64,000 nucleotides of DNA from Promethearchaeota archaeon (lineage in GTDB: Archaea > Asgardarchaeota > Lokiarchaeia > Sigyniarchaeales > SOKP01): the NCBI GenBank assembly GCA_048937405.1, contig JBHLNF010000003.1:64001-128000 (forward strand), given 5' to 3'. Positions 3,295 to 61,400 of this stretch are shown piece after piece. A model generated the notes under the pieces. It saw only the letters and a list, made by a program, of their open reading frames with translations, was not told the origin of the DNA and did not search any database. Each line of letters begins with the position of its first letter. Positions within the stretch are counted from its first letter, which is position 1. Position numbers and translations under genes: made by a program.

Positions 3295-4341
3295 GTGCTT
3301 TTAATGAACACTGTGGAATTAGCGGGGAGTAGTTTTGAAGTAAAAAATGGATTCCTGGACTTAAGCCTTTTAGAGATAAAAGACATAACTGAAATACAAG
3401 GATTATCAAAATTATCTGATTTAAAGAATTTAGAATTGAGTTCCAATGATATATTACATATAAAAGGATTAGAATCGTTAACTGAATTAGAAATATTAAA
3501 TCTAGGAAATAATCAGATTATCGATATTAAGGGCTTAGAGGGACTAGAAAACCTCAAAGTGCTACATCTTATCAGTAACCAAATAAAGGAGATTAAAGGA
3601 TTAAAGAATTTAAATAATTTAGAAGAATTATATTTAAGAGGAAATCAAATAAAAAATTTAAAAGGATTTGATAATCTAAAATCTTTAAAAAGATTGGATC
3701 TTTCTTGGAATGAAATCTCCGAAATTCAAGGATTTGAAAATCTAATAAATCTGGAAGTTTTATGGATTGCTGGCAACCAATTAAGAGAAATAAAAAATCT
3801 AGAGAATTTAAGAAACTTAGAAGTATTAAATTTGGCAGGAAATAATATTAATAAAATTAATGGTTTAAAAAATCTTAGTAAATTGAAAAGCCTTTACTTA
3901 AATAATAATTCAATCAAAAAAATCGAAGGTTTTGAAGCGTTAGAGAGTCTAGAAACTCTTTGGCTTAATACAAATAAGATTTCAGAAATTGAAGGATTAG
4001 ATAAATGTAAAGATTTAAGAATTTTAAATTTAAAACAGAATAATATTAAGCATATTAAAGGTTTGTATTTACTGAAGAATTTAGAAAATCTTTTTCTCTC
4101 AGAAAATAAAATTGGGGAGATTAAAGGTCTTGAGACATTAATAAAATTAGAAACCCTCGATTTGGGTCAAAATGAGATAATTCAGATCAAAGGATTAGAA
4201 TCTTTAGTTAATTTAAAAGACTTATGGCTCGCGGATAATCTTGTCCCTCAGAAAATTCTAGATCAGCTCGGAGGGCTTGATAGTGGAGGTTATGCAAATG
4301 AACCTCTAAAATTTGTGCAATATTGCATTATAAACCTGTAG
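3295..4341 (+). CDS. Leucine-rich repeat protein (Sds22/internalin-like 22-aa repeats); ATG at 3304 may be the true start
   Basis: About 12-13 tandem LxxLxLxxNxIxxIxGLxxLxx repeats. Confidence 0.93.
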   Translation: MLLMNTVELAGSSFEVKNGFLDLSLLEIKDITEIQGLSKLSDLKNLELSSNDILHIKGLESLTELEILNLGNNQIIDIKGLEGLENLKVLHLISNQIKEIKGLKNLNNLEELYLRGNQIKNLKGFDNLKSLKRLDLSWNEISEIQGFENLINLEVLWIAGNQLREIKNLENLRNLEVLNLAGNNINKINGLKNLSKLKSLYLNNNSIKKIEGFEALESLETLWLNTNKISEIEGLDKCKDLRILNLKQNNIKHIKGLYLLKNLENLFLSENKIGEIKGLETLIKLETLDLGQNEIIQIKGLESLVNLKDLWLADNLVPQKILDQLGGLDSGGYANEPLKFVQYCIINL

Positions 4342-5737: not shown

Positions 5738-6019
5738 ATGAAATTAAGATATATCTTAATTATTCTTTTTTCCTTTATATTAGGAATAATAATCACGTTA
5801 TTAACCGGATTCATTTCTAATACTACGACTAATCTTCTTGGTGCTAATAAATGGGGATTTCCATTCTATTGGATGAGTCAGCCTGTTTATCCTGGAGCAG
5901 ATAGGATAATTATATGGTCGAATTTGCTTATTGATATATTGATTTGGAGTTTCTTACTTTTTATGATTATTTGTCTAGGATATTATTTACTAACAAAATT
6001 AAAGCGTAAAAAAAAGTAA
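5738..6019 (+). CDS. Small two-helix membrane protein
   Basis: Two hydrophobic segments flanking a WGFPFYW loop, with a basic C-terminal tail. Confidence 0.7.
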   Translation: MKLRYILIILFSFILGIIITLLTGFISNTTTNLLGANKWGFPFYWMSQPVYPGADRIIIWSNLLIDILIWSFLLFMIICLGYYLLTKLKRKKK

Positions 6020-6084
6020 AAAAAAAATTTTTAAAAAATAATTATTAGATTTGAGTTAAAATTTTTGATAATATGCGAATATTA

Positions 6085-6510
6085 TTATTCTGATTCACTC
6101 AATACTTCCATTACCATAGCAGTAATTTCACCATATGCAATCGCATCTTGAAGATTCCCTTCAATTTGCAAATCTCCACTCATATATGCACTAGTGCCAT
6201 CAACCTCACCTGAAGCCATGCCTGCCCAAGTAGCAGTTGATGCCTTCATGGTTGTGCTTGGATCATCAATTTGACCTTCACCATAATCTACTTGTCCCTC
6301 TCCAAATTTCAACCAATACTTATAATCAGCATCAGTAACTTCAAATTGAATAACTGTAAGGTCAGCATCTTCAATTTCTTCTTTAATATCCTCATCTTCT
6401 ACAGCTAACTGCTTTAAAGCTTCTGCAATTAAGAGAGCATCAGAAGGTTTTCTTTCAATTTCGCCTTCTCTTATTGCTTTTAATTTTTGAAGTAAATCAT
6501 CACTAACCAT
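6085..6510 (-). CDS. SCP2 sterol/lipid-binding domain protein
   Basis: IQFEVTD...W...GE...AYMSGDLQIEGNLQDAI pattern typical of SCP2. Confidence 0.88.
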   Translation of the reverse strand: MVSDDLLQKLKAIREGEIERKPSDALLIAEALKQLAVEDEDIKEEIEDADLTVIQFEVTDADYKYWLKFGEGQVDYGEGQIDDPSTTMKASTATWAGMASGEVDGTSAYMSGDLQIEGNLQDAIAYGEITAMVMEVLSESE

Positions 6511-22394: not shown

Positions 22395-22456
22395 TATTTT
22401 TCATTAAGAGTATAAAGAAAATTTAAATAAAAATGATCAAATAGGTGCCAGATTAT

Positions 22457-37400: not shown

Positions 37401-40400
37401 ATCAGCTGTATGGAGAACTTGCGTATAATGGACATGATCATCTTTGTTTTATAATTGAAGGTGTATCTGATGACCGACGTTATTATTGGAATTACTCGAT
37501 TTCTACAAATATAGCAATTAAAGGAGCAGAATGTGACGTTTCGTTTATGTTAAATAAATATGCAGATGGATATACGAAAGCTTTTGATCGTGAACAAGGT
37601 ATAATATATTTACTAACTGATAACGGATTAGAAACATTCTATGAAGAGGATTTTCAGGCGCCTATCTCAGTTATAACTGAAAACTATTTCTGGACATTCG
37701 ATAAAAAATTCTACAAGCTTGAATATCCTAACTTATTGAAATTTGATTATGATTGGAGGATATATTCTGGCTCTCATTATGATATTGATGTTAGTAACAA
37801 CGGTCTTAATTCTATGTGTTATCAGAATGGATACTGGTATGTGGCTGATGGTAATTTTATAAAGAAATTTAATGCGGAGTGGGTATATCAAACAGAATAT
37901 TTTGTAGGTTCTGAAGATACACCGATATCTCTTAAGTTTAATGAAGATGATAGTTACTGGTATATGCTGGGTGAATATAGTTCAACGGTGTATAGATATG
38001 ATTCTAACTGGGTATATACAGAAACATCATATAATATAAATCAAGACGCAGATCCAAGAGGGATTTATTATCATAATGGATACTGGTGGATGTGCGGTAA
38101 CGAACGTGACAAAATCTACAAATACGATAATCTTTTTACGGTTTCTAAAATATATCAGGGAAATGGAATTTTATACTGCCAAACGGGTGCTACTGAAACA
38201 ATATCATTAAGAAGTAATAGTCTTGATCTTGATCTAATACCTGGAGATATTATTGAAATTACATATAACACCACTTCGACACACGAGATAATGTTTAATT
38301 TGTTAAGCTCTGGAATACAACAAAAAGGATTTAAATTGATACAAGAGGGGAATAAAAATTTCGGTACTAAGACTGTAGGATTTATTCTTGATAATTTTGA
38401 TGATTTTTATGATAATATAGATCAACTCGAATTTACTGGAACATTTGACGATACTCACAATTTAGTAATAGATCACATAAAGATATACCGCATTCCTCCG
38501 AATATTTTTATGAATGTGTCTTGTGGGAATTCGTATAACAACTCTTATAATTTACCATTTATAGTAAATAACATCAATCCCTATGTTGAATTTTACAATT
38601 CCGAGAATGAATTAGTGCAAACAGTAAGGTTATTCTCAAATGTGAGTGATATGAGAGTACAACTTTATTCCAATGAATACTTATACCTATACACAAGTAC
38701 AAAACTACCAGCAAACACGCATTTATGGTGGGAAATTGGTAGCGGAGAATTGTATCTTGTAGATGCTGCTGATCAAACTCAATTGTATGTATCTACCGAT
38801 GAAGGAATGACCTGGATTCAGGTAGATATTGATCCTTCTGACACTTCTGGAGATGCTAAATCACGAGATCACAACATCCAATCAGCGTGGCATGACAACG
38901 TAAGTCAGGTTATATGGTTTGTTGATTGTGATGATGGAACGGCAGACAATTTCGATGTGTGGAAACTTGATTACAGTACGAATAAAACGCACCCAACTAT
39001 AACAGAAATAGGAACTTCTAGTGGTGCTGATGCAGGTAGTGTGATGTTTACGGATATTTTTGTATATAGTTCAGATACATATGTTGTAAATTATGAGGAG
39101 AGATCAGGCACTAAAGTCGTTGTCGTTTGGGATGTGGATACTGCACCATTTACTCAGGAGGGTATACACTATCCAGGCAGTCCAGCGACACATGTTGAAC
39201 TGTCTTTTGTTACACTTATAGGTGATGATGTCTATCTTACTGAGGAACTTGACACAGGACAACCATCACCCATGGATTCAATTCGCATACTGCGTTTTGA
39301 TCTTTTTACCTCATCATGGGGCGCTCCAGATTATCTAAGTGGGTATGATATGCTAGAAAGGGGTATCGTCTATGATGGTAATGATACTATATATTTTATG
39401 GCTGCTAACATTGCTGATGGCAAGAATTATGTATGTTCTTATTCTATTTCAACCTTTACAATTACAGTGGGACAAGAAAATAACATTTCATTTATGTTAA
39501 ACCGAAATGCGGATGGATATGGAAAAGCATTTCATACAAATGGCATAATATATCAAATTACTGAAAACGATATTGAGTTGTTTAATACTAGATCTTATGA
39601 TGATGATGTAATCGCTATTACAGAAGGATATATTATGACCGCAAACGGTAAGTTATACATCTTTGAAAACATTACAATTACGCGGAACAGGTTTAAGGTA
39701 CCATTTCCAGATTTAAATCCTGGAGAGGAATTGGCGGATATAAGAGTTGTTACTATTAGCGGTACCTCATATGAATTTTATTATTTTATAGATGCAACTG
39801 ATCAGGAAATTTACATCAATTTACTAACAGATGAAAACATTGATGGTACATATAATGAGATATATATACGGTACGGATTTACTAACACATCTATCGGATT
39901 TCATCAGTTTTATGGATATTACGACTTAAAATCAACTCTTTTTATCCCAGAAGGGAATTATACATTAAAAGGCTACTTTCATGATATTTCGGGTACAGTT
40001 TCTAAATTTTTATCAAATACAACACATGTAATTGATTTTGAAAGTCCTCGGGTGTTCAAGCAATTTGAAGAAAGTGTAATAATTAATAATCTAAAAGATG
40101 GATTTATTTCATTCATTATTGAAGATTTTAGCGGTATCGACGAGTGCTTTTTCCTTGATCAAATTTTTGATGGGTATTGGGATGTTCAAGGTAATCTTTA
40201 TACCTATTACTTTACTGATCCCCATGCGACTATATTTTTATCTGAATTTTCAACCCCTTCTTTGTGGAATTTCAGCGTCGCCTATGGGAAATTGGACTAT
40301 CATAATCTTGAACATATTGATAATATCAATACAACAATTTATGGTGAGTATACCACATATGACACTCCAGAACAACCCAGCGACGTCATTGTAATAGATG

Positions 40401-43400
40401 GAATTATTACAGATTATGGAAATCTCGAATTTATTGATAATAACGAAACAACAATTGATGCCGAGTATAGCGGTAGTTCATATGACATTAATGCAGAAAT
40501 ATTAATCGATGGGATACCGCCAAATATAAATGACTGGAGGTCCTACCTCAGATTTAATCATAGTTCTACTGCAACTATTGATTTTGATATATGGGATTAT
40601 ACATTATCCGATTGGCAAGATATAAGCGCAGGCCATTATCCAGCAACCTACAGTTTTGAAAACGATCAAGCTGGGCAAAATCCTAGTGAATGGGATATAG
40701 ATGAAACAGGAGGGACTGTCGACGTTCTCGCTACTTTTCAAAGACATGACAAAGTTGTAAAAATTACAGATAGTAGCGGTTCTGATTATCCACGATTTTA
40801 TCAAAGTATCGATTATTTATCATATGGAAAGGTGGAATTTTGGATTTGTGCAGGTGAGACTGATAGAATGCATCGTTTTGCGATTGTTGATTATATGGAT
40901 GAAGGACTTGAGTTTTATATGAGAAATAATGGGCAATTTTCTTATTATGATGTTAATGGGTATCATGATATAGGCGCATATATTACGAATCAATGGTATC
41001 ATATCAAAATAGAATTCGGTCTTACAGACTGGCATCTGTGGATAGATGGTGTTTCTAAGGATCAAGGGAATGGATATGGATATTATGGATATCGTATACC
41101 ATTTACTATTATGACTTTTGAAACAAATTCAGGGGAAACTGGCGCTGATTTTTATATTGATGCAGTAGGAACTTCTTGGTATTCAAAGAAATATAATATC
41201 GGGGACAATAAATACGCAACTCAATTATTATCTACTGATTTAATTAACAATCGCGTTGTAAAGGTACGGTATATAGCCACTGATTCAACCGATTTTGTAC
41301 TAGACATTGATCAACTCCGAGTAGATTACTATGATGATAAGTATAAAATAGAAGGAGAAATTGAATGGTCAGTAGATGATCCAATTTTATATTCAATCGA
41401 TTCGCTACGATTTAGTCAGTTTGTTGAAAACAGACTTGATAATTTTGATATATGGAATTATACATTAGGTAATTGGCAGGATATTTCAAGTGAAGACAGT
41501 CCATTTACACTTTCATCTGATTTTTATGACAGTAGCAATATTATAAAGGTTCGTTACATAGCATCTTCTGATACCACTTTTGGCTTAGATTTAGATCAGC
41601 TCAGAACTGATTACACAACTACAATACCAGTTGAAGGATTTGTATCCACATTCCATTTATTTGTTAAGGATACCGTGGGTAATAATAATACAATTGGTAT
41701 TTCACTCGCATTTGATGATGTGCCTCCTGCGATTGAAGATTTGTACATACATACCAAATATTGGAATGAATTACTGAGAATTGATATAAAGATCAAAGAT
41801 ACTTCTGATTATGATATTTCATTGATGTTAAAAAACATCATTAACAAAGCAACCTTTACTCGGTTGAAATACACCATCACAAATGTAGGACAAGATGAAT
41901 GGCAGATTTTGTTAGATACATCTCAACTGCCGAATGGCTTGTACGATATTTATCTCACCATAACAGACATAGCGGGAAATTCACTTATACATGTTATTGA
42001 AGACATATATTTGGATAACAGTCCCGTAGAATTTTTGTATCTTGAAGATAAAGTAATAATCGACGACATTTCGATGTATAGTTTTGTAATTGATGATGTA
42101 TTATATTTCAATGATAGAAAAGAAATAGCTATTTCTGCAATTGACATTACCTACGACGGTTTTAGCTGGAGTTTAATTGATCCAGCGCTGGGTATTCAAC
42201 AAGGGGTTCATAATATTACAATGTATATAACAAACGAGCTTGCTTATCACCCCGTTGTGTTATCAACCGAATTGAATTATGATACACTTTCATATGTAAT
42301 AATCGGCTATGGTACCTATCCAAATATTATATATGATACACAAGCCATCAAGGAAATCAAGCGGTTGAAAATTAATGATGTAGTTATAGAAAATAACGGG
42401 TTTTCGACCTCATTTACTGGAGGTTCATATGTATTGCATATTGATCCTCATTATACATATTTACTATCCCCATTAAATACAATTGAAGCCGAGTTCTATG
42501 AACGCATTGAAGACGGCATTTATTTTGAGTTTGATAGTATTAGTATGGAATGGGTTTTGAAATCAAGTGGAAAAGATTTCTTTAATATCTCTGAGTATCT
42601 GTCACTTTCTGAAGGAGAAGAATTTTACTTTTGGTTCGAATTGGAAGATGGAATGGGTGTTGCCAAAAATGGTTCGGTATCATATAATCCGTGGTGGAGA
42701 TACACAGGGATTAATTATCCAGTTTTTCCAGTTAACGAAACATCTCCAAAAAGCATATACTACCAAAATGGATATTGGTATGTGCTTGGAGATTATAACA
42801 ATAAAGTATTTAAGTACTATTCTAATTGGATACCTACTGGTGAGTCATATTCCATTGCTTCTGAGGATAACCTACCACAATCGATCTATTACTATGATGG
42901 ATATTGGTGGGTATTGGGTCAATTTAACAAAACTGTGTTTAAGTACAATCCAGACTGGACTTATACTAACTTAAACTACACGATAGATGAAGATGCCTGG
43001 CCAACTTCAATTTTTTATCATAACGGATATTGGTGGGTGCTCGGAAATGCTCAATCAGAAGTATTTAAATATAACTCTGATTGGACATATTCTGGAGAAT
43101 CATTTTTACTCGAAACAGAGGGAGATCTAAGTGACATCAATTTTGAGGGAGGATATTGGTATGTCTGTTGCAATGATAAAAGAAGGATATATAAGTACGC
43201 AGTTGATTGGACATATTTGGGAGAATCTTTTTCAGTAAACGCGAATCCGACCGCTATTCATTATGCAAATGACTACTGGTGGGTTCTGGGAGAACAGTCA
43301 AGAATATACAAGTATATGTGGCAGACTTCGAATGAGACAAGGGGAAATATCTTTATCACCCATACCTATAAAGGAATTTATGATAATTCAATTGAACGGA

Positions 43401-55400: not shown

Positions 55401-58400
55401 TAGAATTTGAGGAATTTATATTAGATGATAATAAAGTACGCATATCCAAAGAAGTGTTAGATGCTAACTTGTTCTATGATATTAACGCTCAGAAGTATTT
55501 ACTACGGTGTAAATTGGAATATTTCTGGGATTGTTTCTTCATCATTAATTTTGCAACAGGTAATAAACTGGAAGTCGTTGCTGAATTGACATTAGATAAA
55601 TATGATCTTAGTGTATTTTACACGAAGTATGAGACGACAAGGATATCAGCAGATGAGTATGATATACCCTTTGATATGGCCGCTATTGATGCACCGAATT
55701 ATATTGAAAATGTTGTTGAAGGACATTATCCAGCGACCTACAGTTTTGAAAATGAAGTTGGCGAAACTGATACAAATATTGAGTGGATCGATGATGTTTA
55801 TTCTGGAGCTCATGCAGAAATAATTAATAGTCATCAAGGTCATAATGCAGTTTTGGAATTTAATGTCGATGCTGGTTATCAATATGCAAAAATAAACGAT
55901 TTAAACCTAGATCAAGATTCTGGAACAGTTGAATTTTGGCATCTCTATGACACAGAGACCTTTCAATGGCAATTTAGAGACTTTAGTGGCAATTATTTAT
56001 TCCAGATTAGAATTACTCCTACCCATATTACATTCTACTATGACGGAACTACTTCATATATTATTGATACTACCACCGAATGGGTACATATCAGAAGTGA
56101 CTTTGATTGCGCGAGTGATTCAGTAAGTTTTTATGTAAATGATTTTCTTATTGTTGACAATCAACCACTGGATAATAATAATTCATTAAATCAGGTGATT
56201 ATTCAAACTAATTCTAATTCAGCAAGCCGATGTTATGTTGACGCAATAGGTTATTCTTGGGATATCAATTATATAATTAATGATAATAAACATGAAGATA
56301 CAAAAGTAGCAAAACTTCTTGCAAATGATCAAGAAATTGATATAGGAGTGCTTGGTGGATTTCTTAGGAATATTGATTCACGACAGAGATTAATGTTAAG
56401 GCAAAAACTCTTCTATAATTTTACAGAAAGTGAACTTGACAGTTTTCAAATATTATTGGATCAAAAATATTCAGATGTACAACTAAGATTCATGAATCCA
56501 ATTGGTTGGTTAGAATACCCTATTAATGATCGATTTGGTAAATATAGCACCTCTATTTCAGTTCCGATCTATCCTGATGATTTTAATTTAATTAACGGAT
56601 TATTAACGAGGCAAGGAAGTCTTTTGGGTATCAATAACGATTATCATACAATTGTATCAGAATTATTACGAACCGAGTATCTAAAATTAAGCGAAATGCC
56701 AATAGCAGGTGACTTTAATATCACTTTGAACTGGGGAGATCTTGAGTATATTAATGGGGATTTTGCATCATTTGCTTCCGAAATTTCAGGTTCGTATTAT
56801 AGCAGTGATTATAAAATTCCTAACCAAGTACAATTCTCATTTACTGAAGGTGTGTGGAACTACTATGATAAAGGAGCTCTCAACTATGATGATAATCAGA
56901 ACTCAATGATTACCGCAACATCAAGTAATAGTAGTTCAGAATACGAAATTCCAGTATACGGACATTATCCTGCTACCTATAGTTTCGAAAATGAGATACC
57001 AGAAACTTCGGGAACAGATATAGGTTTTGTAGATCAATCGAGTGGAAATGTAGAGATTATCGATAATTTTAACAATCATTATCATGTTATTGAAGTAAAT
57101 GATACTGACTCATCTGGACATTATTTCAGACATAATATTCCGACAGCGCTATCTGAAGGGTCTATAGAATTTTGGATATGCGCATCCGATGTTACTCAAG
57201 AAGTAGAGATCAAACTTATGAATACAATCACAACAACTGTTTGTAGAATTCATATTTTAGCTGATAAATTTCAAGCATTTTATAATTCTCAATGGAATGA
57301 TCTAACCACCATTCCTTATGATAACACATGGTATCATATAAGAATAGATTGGGAGCAAATTAATAATAAATTTTCTGTTTTTATAGATGGTGTAGAGGAG
57401 GTTTCATATAAAACAGTTGAGGATAACGGTAATGTGAAATCATTCCAAATGATGAGTCAAACCACAGATCAAAACTATTTAATATATTTTGATGCATACG
57501 GATGCCCTGAAGAAGATTTAAGCTACACTCTCGGCGATAATAAAAAGGAAAGCGGTAACTTTAATGTAATTACAGGAAATCTCATCTATGGTGATCTTGC
57601 CGATATAGATAGCCAGGTATCAACTATATCAGTTACAGATCCAGGTCTTCCAATGATACAAGGGTGGGATTATGTACGAGATATTACATTAAGTCCACCA
57701 ACCCCAGAAGATAACTATCAGGTAAAGGTGCAATTAGATAGCTCAAACTTTGATTATTCTAAAGTAAAATCAGGTGGTTCTGATTTACGATTTTATGCTA
57801 GTGGCGTATTGTTGAATTATTGGATAGAGTCATGGGATATAACAGGATATTCTCTTATATGGGTAAATGTCCCAGATGCAGGAACGTCTGTGATTAACAT
57901 GTATTACGGAAATTCTGCAGCAGTGGCAATGAGCAACGGGTCGGCGACATTTCCTTTTTTTGATGATTTTGAAGGAACAAGTTATGATAACAATATATGG
58001 TATGAAGTATATGATACTACTGGAGAAATTAAGGAAAGATATGTAAATGTATCTGATAGTATAGCTGAATTATATATAGAACTTGACCCAGATGATTGGG
58101 GTGGACAATATACTCCAGAGATGCGGTGGGAAAGAAGTGCTGTTGGATGGCTTGATTTCTGGTCAACAGGGGGGACTTATGGAAATAGGTATCCGAATAG
58201 TCTTTGTTTCCTTGAAGACGATACCATGACAAGGAGGGATGGTGGAGAGATTGAAACAACTAGCAATGTTGCAGCTTCTGAATGGGTTTGGACTATTAAA
58301 GAGGTTGTTTGGATCAATTCTTCATCAGTCAAGTTTTATGAAAATGATACTTTTCTATCAGAGCACACAAATTCTAACGCTATACCAATTTCTGAAACAG

Positions 58401-61400
58401 TACCGATACAATTTTATCTCGGCTGTGGATCCTATCCAAACGGTTGGGATCATATGCTAGGTTTAGAGTCTATTGATAACACTCTCGGTGCTGAAGGTAG
58501 AGCTCTAAGAAGTTTTACTTTAAATGAGTGGAATGAAGCTACTGATGACGATATTCTCATATGTCTAATTGATTGGGTCTTTATTTATAATATTAATGAA
58601 ACGGAGTCAGTCGCTAGCATAGGATCTGAGTCCTTACAGGAATATTCTGTAAATGCAGAAATTGAGTGGTCTGTTGATGATCTAAATCTTATATCAATGG
58701 ATTATTTAAGTTTTGAATATGATGATATTCCAGAGGGGTGGAATTATTTAGGGACTCATTTTGATGTACAGGCTCAAGATGGGCGTCCAATGGGAATTAC
58801 CTGGGATGGTACACATTTTTGGGTTGTTGGAGATGGTAATAGTGAAGTTTATCAATACACAACTGCGGGAGTGTATTCCGGTACTCATTTTGATGTAGGA
58901 AGTCAAGCTAATTACCCAGTTGGAATCACTTGGGACGGAACATATTTCTGGATTGTATGTACATCAAATGATGAAGTCTATCAATACACAGCTGCGGGAG
59001 TGTATACTGGTACTCATTTTGATGTAGCAGGTCAAGATACGAGTTTAGGTGATATTATATGGGATGGAACTTATTTATGGGTTTTAGGATTTGTTAACCA
59101 AGAAGTATATCAATATACGACCGCAGGGGTGTATACCGGAGTTCATTTTGATGTTACAGGTGATAGTGGAATCACATGGGACGGTATCAATTTCTGGGTC
59201 CTTTCAGATAGTAATGATGAAGTTTATCAATATACAGCTACGGGAGTGTATACTGGTGTTCATTTTGATGTAGGAAGTCAAGGAAATCAGATAATAGGTA
59301 TTACATGGGATGGAGGAAATTTATGGGTTATGCATGGAGAAGGACCAGGAGGAGGTAATCCAGAAGTTTACAAATATATATTCTTTGAATTTAATTTTGA
59401 TATATGGAATTATAATGCTGAAGACTGGCAGGATATTTCAAATGAAACTAGTCCATTTGCACTGACTACCGATCATTATAATAGCAGCAATACTTTAAAG
59501 GTTCGTTATATAGCTTATTCTGGTAGTCCTTTTAATATCACCATTGACCAATTACACATTGATTATACACAAGCTACTGATTATATGGTTGATGCGGTAG
59601 CAGAAATAACCATTCAGGATGATGTGATGTATGAATATCAACAAACAAGTGCTAAACAACCAGCAAATACACACTTATGGTGGGAACTTGGTGATGGTGT
59701 ATTTTATCTTGTAGATTCAACCGATCAGTCCAAATTGTATGTGACATTGGATGAAGGGAAGACCTGGGCTCAGGTAGATGTCGATCCTTCGGATACTTCA
59801 GGAGATAGTAAATCGCGAGATCATAAGATTCATTCTGCTTGGCATGATAGAATAAATAAGATTATCTGGTTTTTGGATTGTGATAATGGTGGTACTGCTG
59901 ATAATTTTGATGTTTGGAAATTAGATTATACAGTAAGTAAAACGAGTCCAACTGTAACGGAAGTAGGGACTTCAAGTGGGGCAGATGCAAATAGTGTGTA
60001 TGCTTATGATATTTTTATGATTGGTAGTAATGTGTTTGTTATAAATTTGGAAGAACGTTCTTATACTCAAACTATGGTAATTTGGGACGTAGATACTGCT
60101 CCTTTTACTGAGAAAGATACAGATACAAGCGAAGGTGTAAATAGAAACACATATATGTTTGGTGCAGTCGTAGGAAACATTTATTATAATTGCTTCGAAG
60201 TCGATAGTTTTAAAGTATTTGAATATAATGACTCTGCAACCACAATCTCATGGACATCAGAAGCATTATATACTCCCCCTTCTAACAGTAATTTAAAAGC
60301 AATGACGTATGATGGTTCAGATGTAATTTATATGATTGGAGATAGATGGGTGGTTGATCGATATGTAAACTATTTACTTTCTTATTCAATTTCAGGAGGT
60401 TCATGGACGGTAGGAGGAGAAGAAACTAATGTTGCATTAATGCTTAATAGAAATGCAGAAGGGTGTGCAAAAGCATATCATCTCGAAAATGGAACTATAT
60501 ATTATATCACCACAAACGGTCTTGAAGTAATGTATGACGGTAGTTCTTATTTTGATGATGATGTTATCGCAATTACTGATACTTATATTATGACTGATAG
60601 TGATATTATTTACAAACTTATCGGGCAAAATGATATAAATATTGAATCTGTAGACTATCTATTTTTTGACCATATTGCATCTGTAGGCACCAGCTTTTTT
60701 GTTTGGAATTATACTGCAGGTTCATGGCAAAATATTTCCAGTGAGTCAAGTCCTTATTCTCTTAAAACCGATCATTATGATGGAAATTACACTATACTTG
60801 TGCGATATCTCACAGGAGTATCTATCAGTTCATTTGATTTGGATATTGATCAATTAAAAGTAAATTACACGAAACTCGCTAATCTCTATGATGTACATGC
60901 TGAGGTGGTGTGGGATATTACGGAAGTTATTCAATCAGTGGAATATTTGATGTACTCGCATAAAACTTCAAGGGATGTAAACTGTACAATGGAAATTTGG
61001 GACTTTACCTCTCAGGAATGGGATCTGGTAAACAGCTCTATCAACTCTATTGGATTTTTCAACACATCCTTTGATTTGAGCGATCCTCGATACCGTAATG
61101 CAACCAATCATGTGAAAATTCGGTATACAACTAAGGGGCTTCCTACAGAATTTAATCTTCTCATTGATAGATTGCGGGTGGATTACACCTCAATAGATGA
61201 GATTTATGGTATTGATGTTGAAGTTACATGGAATGTCTCAGATGAACTTTTCTATTCATTAGATTTCTTGAAATATTCCTATAGAACTAATGAGTCAATT
61301 GATGTAGATCTTGATATTTATAACTACACCTCGCAATCATGGGTAGGTATAGAAAGTGTAATAAACTCAGAGGTATTTAATGATGAATCATTTACGCTCA

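Follow-up and report, generated by a model that had tools for sequence, protein, structure and literature searches.

A candidate display arm, nested within itself, interrupts an Ig-like domain of a giant Promethearchaeota protein

Introduction

How can a giant surface protein acquire a branch without disturbing the array of domains from which it is built? The question is raised by a 64,000-nucleotide stretch of DNA from a Promethearchaeota archaeon (positions 64,001 to 128,000 of contig JBHLNF010000003.1, assembly GCA_048937405.1), which we refer to as the window. A single open reading frame (ORF) fills the forward strand of the window from position 22445 past its end at 64000 and, over the full contig, encodes a protein of 20,619 amino acids (aa). 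One immunoglobulin-like (Ig-like) domain of this protein is interrupted by a 467-residue insert, in which two short segments (stubs) are followed by two longer ones (bodies) and the first body is itself split by a module that we name GHYPATY after its sequence. Relatives of the region occur in metagenome-assembled genomes (MAGs) titled Promethearchaeota or Promethearchaeia, which are Loki-type Asgard archaea. Eukaryotes have no closer known relatives than the Asgard archaea, whose cell surfaces and cell-cell contacts occupy a central place in hypotheses of eukaryogenesis. To our knowledge, almost nothing is known about the giant surface proteins of Asgard archaea.

The insert probably forms a nest of four levels, in which an Ig-like host carries an outer beta-sandwich, the outer beta-sandwich carries an inner one of the same family, and the inner one carries a laminin G (LamG)-like module, the whole serving as a display arm. 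The parts, their order, and the interruption of the Ig-like domain are observed directly. New for this locus are orthologues in which the host domain is intact, a noncanonical position of the LamG-like module, and confident models, one of the inner storey and one of a canonical relative with two storeys.

Results

The host domain is uninterrupted in all orthologues found. Six orthologous giant ORFs were recovered from the same genus (G003:C7, G073:C135, G073:C95, G014:C35, G067:C3, and G064:C47), and in all six the host domain reads through without a break as ..NIYTFYFND-SAII-EGL..I.L.CNDTLGY.., in a conserved neighbourhood with ..GEFYDISG..IDF.GP.. upstream and ..SDYS..W.IL.D...L.DGYYDI....D..GN.. 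downstream. When these ORFs were aligned as colinear rows with MAFFT, they showed one gap, opposite residues 5926 to 6392 of the source protein (nucleotides 40220 to 41620); the initial annotation, made from the DNA letters alone, had placed the insert at 40229 to 41620. A scan of species-representative genomes added one further orthologue from a Promethearchaeota MAG, L071, also uninterrupted, and returned the G064 orthologue a second time, again uninterrupted, as L076. Among the 54 genomes of the genus that were searched, a split match was present in the source genome only, and the arm appears to have been added, or kept, in the source lineage only.

The residues E6397, G6398, D6409, G6412, D6424, and P6428 of the C-terminal half of the host domain are invariant across the orthologues. 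The uninterrupted orthologous stretch, comprising this domain and the next one, scored 30.3, 33.7, and 39.2 bits against Big_3_3 in three of the six orthologues (cut-off, 27 bits) and 20 to 25 bits against Big_13, just under the cut-off, in all of them; the two host halves of the source protein are themselves too short to score with the Pfam Big models. The cut falls in a loop whose counterpart in the following, intact Ig-like domain has the sequence DTSQLPNG, and the insert lies in frame and exactly within that loop of the host. Because the orthologues carry the domain uninterrupted, we take the two flanks to be the halves of a single Ig-like domain of bacterial (Big_3_3) type, which agrees with the proposal of the initial annotation; the orthologues amount to a natural version of the deletion suggested there as a check. 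The Ig-like domain that follows the insert also has matches of 26 to 27% identity in one MAG each of Nanoarchaeota and Methanobacteriota (L079 and L080). A search for target-site-like repeats at the junctions of the insert returned just the hexamer ACTGAT (encoding Thr-Asp) on both edges, at 40214 to 40219 and 41606 to 41611, which is within chance expectation.

The insert consists of two stubs followed by two bodies (Table 1). The initial annotation had described two stubs and two bodies, the latter at 40481 to 41329 and 41342 to 41614, and matches obtained with profile hidden Markov models (HMMs) and phmmer bear this out, the order being stub 1, stub 2, the inner body split by the GHYPATY module, and the outer body. 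The outer body scored 125 to 136 bits against the family HMM, which the inner body matches as two pieces. The outer body, used as a query, likewise recovered the inner body as two separate pieces, residues 6035 to 6071 (query positions 23 to 60; independent E value [iE], 5e-7) and 6262 to 6295 (query positions 58 to 92; iE, 2e-7), and also matched four bodies farther along the protein at residues 12067 to 13022 (iE, 1e-5 to 1e-21). The break in the inner body lies between positions 52 and 65 of the family HMM, a variable loop, and in the alignment the 196-aa GHYPATY module is a single insertion between ..WQDISA and TQLLSTDL.. that exactly fills this break. The claim that the module splits the inner body at 40631 to 41209 was thus upheld, with its end now at 41218.

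Table 1. Parts of the insert and of the interrupted host domain
Feature	Position in window	Strand	Residues	Sequence and basis
Host Ig-like domain, N-terminal half	40025..40219	+	5861-5925	HVIDFESP...NLYTYYFTD; column-for-column alignment with the intact domain of six orthologues
Whole insert	40220..41620	+	5926-6392	467 aa; single alignment gap in six orthologues
Stub 1	40271..40351	+	5943-5969	FSVAYGKLDYHNLEHIDNINTTIYGEY; likeness to stub 2, fit to family consensus
Stub 2	40391..40471	+	5983-6009	Top match of stub HMM; aligns with stubs of 11 unsplit homologues
Inner body, N-terminal part	40481..40630	+	6013-6062	YDINAEILI...FDIWDYTLSDWQDISA; body HMM positions 1-52
GHYPATY module	40631..41218	+	6063-6258	Predicted ConA-like/LamG-type jelly roll; putative tip cargo
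Inner body, C-terminal part	41219..41332	+	6259-6296	TQLLSTDL...VKVRYIA...LDIDQLRVDY; body HMM positions 65-100
Outer body	41339..41620	+	6299-6392	Full-length body family match
Host Ig-like domain, C-terminal half	41621..41731	+	6393-6429	TIPVEGFVSTFHLFVKDTVGN...DDVPP; aligns with second half of intact orthologous domain

Stubs were sought in the whole protein with an HMM built solely from 10 stubs of other genomes, and the nine best matches were exactly the stubs named in the initial annotation. Stub 2 ranked first (10.2 bits; iE, 5e-5), against a maximum of −0.2 bits in 20 shuffled proteins. Stub 1 is recognised by its likeness to stub 2 (phmmer iE, 0.0015 in a search space of 20,619 aa; 15 identities in 25 aligned positions), and its sequence conforms to the consensus of the family, F-x-h-x-x-G-x-l-x-x-G-D-L-x-x-h-D-x-x-y-t-t-I. 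The likeness of both stubs to those at 56555 to 57640, asserted earlier, was recovered by phmmer as well as by the stub HMM. Stub 2 is joined to the inner body by the linker YSGSS, and linkers of 3 to 5 residues are also found in unsplit homologues. The outer and inner bodies are 50% identical (42 of 84 residues), the DNA of the two stubs is 78% identical over 58 nucleotides, and that of the inner body N-terminal part and the outer body is 86% identical over 43 nucleotides. With 50 to 60% identity the two storeys appear to be paralogues of each other and, given the stretches of 78 to 86% identical DNA, the first storey was probably duplicated to give the second.

Stubs and bodies obey a counting rule across the family. 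A profile search with the body family over 1.84 billion representative proteins returned 264 members, the best 150 of which were scanned with our stub and body HMMs, yielding 107 stub/body blocks. Stubs and bodies were equal in number in 76 of these (61 blocks of 1+1, 13 of 2+2, one of 3+3, and one of 7+7), and stubs outnumbered bodies in only 2. The equality noted earlier for this locus (two and two) and for a further arm of the same protein at 56555 to 61510 (four and four) was verified at both places, the bodies of that arm being 46 to 59% identical to those here. Stubs always precede bodies in relatives from other loci, in 1+1 arrangement in L033, L037, L049, and L052 and in 2+2 arrangement in L034 and L038. 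The deepest nest seen was in a 2343-aa representative, P0003, with seven stubs (residues 105 to 386) followed by seven bodies (residues 524 to 1240).

The hallmark of a body, about 95 aa long, is Y-x-h-x-x-E-h-x-W ... h-D-I-W-N-Y-x-x-x-x-W ... V-K-V-R-Y ... L-x-I-D-Q-L-R-h-D-Y, which is present here; the hallmark of the stubs, of about 27 aa each, is that there is one per body with all stubs ahead of the bodies, and the insert has two of each in this order. The median spacing is 17 aa from stub to stub and 11 aa from body to body, while the last stub and the first body are separated by a median of 171 aa, which is the size of one guest domain. A stub runs straight into a body (gap of at most 9 residues) in 12 cases among the 150 representatives and in locus L051, giving an unsplit domain of about 135 aa. 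Because of these unsplit cases, we consider the stub to be the N-terminal part of the domain that the body completes, and, as far as the sequences indicate, the stub/body junction is the usual entry point for a guest.

The family is narrowly distributed and has no counterpart in the databases searched. The stub/body domain had no match in a Pfam scan of the window, a PDB sequence search with the body profile returned no match, and a search for related loci came up empty whether the query was the body alignment or just the outer body. When 161 genomes of the phylum were sampled, strong matches to the body were almost confined to the source's own family (10 of 28 genomes) and always lay in large ORFs.

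Structure models support the pairing of stub and body in the inner storey. Several MAFFT settings (auto, L-INS-i, E-INS-i, G-INS-i, and FFT-NS-2) misaligned mixed fragments of Ig-like, stub, body, and LamG sequence, and alignments of single families or colinear relatives were clean; models were therefore limited to the inner storey and to a canonical relative. The first AlphaFold2 target comprised residues 5974 to 6298 (stub 2, inner body N-terminal part, LamG-like module, and inner body C-terminal part), with an alignment of 11 unsplit homologues and 25 bodies that was clean around the LamG-like module and contained no LamG rows. The predicted local distance difference test (pLDDT) score was 75 to 96 for stub 2 together with the inner body N-terminal part, 79 to 96 for the latter alone, and 87 to 96 for the C-terminal part. 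Stub 2 was modelled as strands at model residues 8 to 12, 14 to 17, and 29 to 32 (pLDDT, 89 to 96), and the only other confident partner for it in the chain was the inner body; the LamG part, for which the alignment offered no rows, did not reach 50. Stub 2 and both pieces of the inner body are thus modelled confidently as one folded unit.

The second target was residues 103 to 582 of P0092, a canonical stub-stub-LamG-body-body protein, with a verified colinear alignment of 43 rows. Mean pLDDT was 92.8, the predicted template modelling (pTM) score was 0.76, and no segment fell below 50. Both stubs were modelled as strands (pLDDT, 79 to 96), although just two rows hold stub 1 and the outer body, and the LamG module reached 86 to 98. 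A pTM of 0.76 for a four-domain chain of 480 residues suggests that such a two-storey unit is a fairly rigid assembly. The two-storey reading of the initial annotation accordingly finds support, for the inner storey from the model and for the outer from elimination, the counting rule, and the P0092 model. Foldseek matched the latter model to proteins with multiple jelly rolls and carbohydrate-binding modules (CBMs) at E values of 1e-8 to 1e-4 (50 shown of 77 at E ≤ 0.001), including Cry1 protoxin C-terminal domains, Vip3, GH101, sialidase BT_1020, a CBM22 tandem, and reelin repeats. It returned nothing for the first model at E ≤ 1e-3, which we attribute to the unmodelled LamG part, and for P0127 the ESM Atlas gave only weak jelly-roll/LamG leads (template modelling [TM] score, 0.3 to 0.4).

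The LamG-like module occupies an unusual position. About 100 homologous GHYPATY copies (26 to 40% identity) occur in related genomes. The family matches Laminin_G_3, Sialidase-like_CBM, and Pentaxin, and two of seven relatives pass the Pfam cut-off (L010 with 32.2 bits for Laminin_G_3 and L007 with 30.0 bits for Sialidase-like_CBM); these matches consistently point to the ConA-like lectin/glucanase clan. Modules of this LamG type are very abundant in the genus, as in loci L002 to L030 of related genomes, and often form tandem arrays of 2 to 6 in ORFs of 270 to 5,900 aa; a body family scan of the same loci found none that carries the stub/body domain.

In 23 canonical units that do bear a LamG module (18 stub-LamG-body and 5 stub-stub-LamG-body-body), the module always lies at the innermost stub/body junction. 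Here stub 2 runs directly into the inner body, and the module sits in a loop of that body after WQDIS. The outer storey keeps to the usual rule of a guest at the stub/body junction, its guest being the inner domain, whereas the inner storey departs from it. Among 342 matches to the N-terminal part of the body (in representatives, loci, and the giant protein), guests lying inside a body were confined to the giant protein, at two sites, the inner body here and the first body of the four-stub arm. In that arm, the first two bodies, at 58643 to 59569 (residues 12067 to 12375) and 59600 to 60871, are split by beta-propeller-like guests. These guests use loops other than that used by the LamG-like module here, and the body therefore seems to tolerate guests at three or more sites.

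Discussion

We hypothesize that the chain would leave the Ig-like host (Big_3 type) in the loop after the strand ..YTYYFTD, form the short leading strands of the outer domain (stub 1) and then stub 2, and pass directly through the linker YSGSS into the inner domain. At the loop that follows ..WQDIS it would exit the inner domain, form the ConA/LamG-like module, and return to complete first the inner domain and then the remainder of the outer domain (the outer body), before re-entering the Ig-like domain at ..EGFVSTFHLFV. By elimination and analogy, stub 1 would pair with the outer body and supply the N-terminal strands of the outer domain. The resulting side arm would hold the lectin-like module off the axis of the giant membrane-anchored surface protein, with a reach that depends on the number of storeys, and most likely serves to display a predicted binding module away from that axis. 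Both the binding function and the geometry of the arm are inferred from analogy.

Several observations weigh against this four-level reading. The GHYPATY module scored 19.4 bits against Laminin_G_3, below the cut-off of 27.6. Stub 1 by itself is at noise level with the stub HMM (−1.0 bits), and the case for pairing it with the outer body here is one of elimination and analogy. Bodies outnumbered stubs in 29 of the 107 blocks. The models were read at the level of pLDDT and secondary structure only, and the TM-scores of the Foldseek matches were low (0.1 to 0.3), which we ascribe to the multidomain nature of the models. The surplus-body blocks may reflect missed stubs or bodies that have none. 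Three representatives (P0004, P0014, and P0017) have their parts in the order stub-body-(about 30 aa)-LamG-body. The gap of 30 aa has the length of a stub, which probably lies below the HMM threshold, and stubs missed in this way may account for part of the surplus.

It is an unlikely but not negligible alternative that the architecture is as described and the arm is a spacer or lattice element, making lateral contacts between giant proteins or shielding the surface, instead of a binding device. The extreme abundance and diversity of the LamG-type module, often in tandem arrays, fits structural or self-association roles. However, in adhesins that have been studied, split domains carry ConA/LamG and CBM-type folds at their tips as binding modules (PMC12077191), and different arms of the giant protein bear different tip modules (DUF2341, propellers, and LamG), which suggests interchangeable cargo.

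We consider it improbable that the stubs are merely short linker repeats or a small independent beta unit, with each body complete by itself and the equal numbers a by-product of duplication. The weakness of stub 1 against the family HMM would fit such repeats, as would the 29 blocks with surplus bodies, including runs of bodies in which no stub was detected (for example, P0005, P0015, and P0023). Yet a linker repeat does not explain the 12 natural cases in which a stub runs straight into a body, nor the constant order of stubs and then bodies, in which a gap the size of one guest separates the last stub from the first body. Surplus stubs occur in just two blocks, and the confident strands of stub 2 have the inner body as the sole other confident part of their chain.

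More improbable still is a crossed pairing, of stub 1 with the inner body and stub 2 with the outer body, or an exchange of stubs between molecules to give a domain-swapped oligomer. Such a pairing has no direct support. It is at odds with the 3 to 5 residues that join stub 2 to the inner body, as in the unsplit homologues, and with the confident modelling of stub 2 and inner body in a target that omitted stub 1 and the outer body, and it would require a knotted path through the LamG excursion. The nested pairing, stub 2 with the inner body and stub 1 with the outer, is accordingly preferred.

An artefact of assembly or binning, in which two parts of the gene were chimerically joined to give the insert, can be set aside with near certainty even though the gene is highly repetitive and the insert is present in just one searched genome, because contigs of two read runs bridge both junctions with no differences (X3, 39900 to 40481 and 40783 to 41950; X4, which is not flagged as a source, 39900 to 40444 and 41392 to 41950), the insert keeps the reading frame and falls precisely within a host-domain loop, and the nearest paralogous bodies, at 46 to 59% identity, are too distant for a mis-join. 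In a third study, run X6 from a mangrove metagenome yielded two 259-nucleotide pieces at 40663 to 40921 and 41062 to 41320 with at least 99% identity. These are internal to the LamG part and do not cover the junctions, and the organism or a very close strain would therefore have been present in a sample from another habitat. No RNA run was among the sequencing runs listed with this stretch.

The locus amounts to a natural experiment in which the same Ig-like domain exists with and without a 467-residue nested arm. A folded domain can evidently take up a whole arm, probably one for display, in one of its loops with the array left undisturbed, and, if the four-level nest is correct, one small domain family, found mainly in one Promethearchaeota family, would act as a stackable adaptor. 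A broader proposal, offered tentatively and with more doubt than belief, is that the stub/body domain is a dedicated recursive "socket" that, together with its cargo, forms a portable in-frame cassette for surface loops of unrelated host domains, as with the Ig-like domain here, or for insertion into itself. Were this true, Asgard archaea would have a combinatorial route to branched surface proteins with adjustable reach. For protein engineering, the domain may offer a natural scaffold that takes guests in several of its loops and, when nested, could tune the length of a stalk.

Genomic setting

The giant gene is preceded by ordinary chromosomal genes (those for glutamate dehydrogenase, aconitase, fumarase, and a leucine-rich-repeat protein). 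The last of these, a 348-aa protein encoded at 3295 to 4341 and 18 kb upstream of the giant gene, has internalin-like leucine-rich-repeat matches with an E value of 1e-38, well under the family cut-offs. The portion of the giant ORF inside the window, 13,851 aa, was scanned with Pfam, and the few matches were to Laminin_G_3, DUF2341, and weak Ig-like domains.

Comparison with known systems

A small beta domain family nested in itself is known from Si3 of the cyanobacterial RNA polymerase beta' subunit, which comprises eight sandwich-barrel hybrid motifs (SBHMs), several of them assembled from distant segments of the chain (PMC10895346). Like the insert described here, Si3 has discontinuous copies and forms an elongated arm from a loop of its host. 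It differs in having the SBHM fold, in belonging to a cytoplasmic enzyme, and in having neither interchangeable cargo nor the grammar of short stubs and long bodies. No SBHM or RNA polymerase was present among the 50 of 77 Foldseek matches listed for the P0092 model, and Si3 is an architectural analogy only. By Foldseek the canonical unit resembles CBM and galactose-binding-like jelly rolls, and by Pfam the GHYPATY family resembles ConA-like LamG domains; the stub/body domain has no membership in these families at the level of sequence.

Also among the closest parallels are the RTX adhesins, in which Ig-like split domains project lectin-type modules off the axis of the fibre, and in which deeper nesting also occurs, as an RTX roll, then vWFA, then a further insert (PMC12077191). 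In the split-domain units of AhLap from Aeromonas hydrophila and FrhA from Vibrio cholerae (PMC12077191, PMC10865825), as here, an Ig-like domain of a fibrillar protein is interrupted by a complete guest and then resumes, and the guests are lectin or CBM-type modules, similar to the LamG-like cargo here. The giant protein would work alike without being a member of this class, the type I-secreted RTX adhesins of Gram-negative bacteria. It is archaeal and anchored through a multi-pass membrane segment, and Pfam found neither HemolysinCabind/RTX repeats nor a type I secretion signal in the 13,851 aa scanned. Neither RTX adhesins nor Si3 are sequence relatives of the stub/body family. The Ig-like host here is cut in a late loop, not after the first strand, and the projecting element is a dedicated split beta-sandwich family that has no Pfam model and is recursive, with two storeys here and seven in P0003.

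Within the giant protein itself, the four-stub arm at 56555 to 61510 belongs to the same stub/body family and follows the same rule. Compared with the other arms, the one described here differs in two respects: it is hosted by an Ig-like domain that all orthologues found have intact, and its LamG cargo occupies an inner-body loop, not the stub/body junction.

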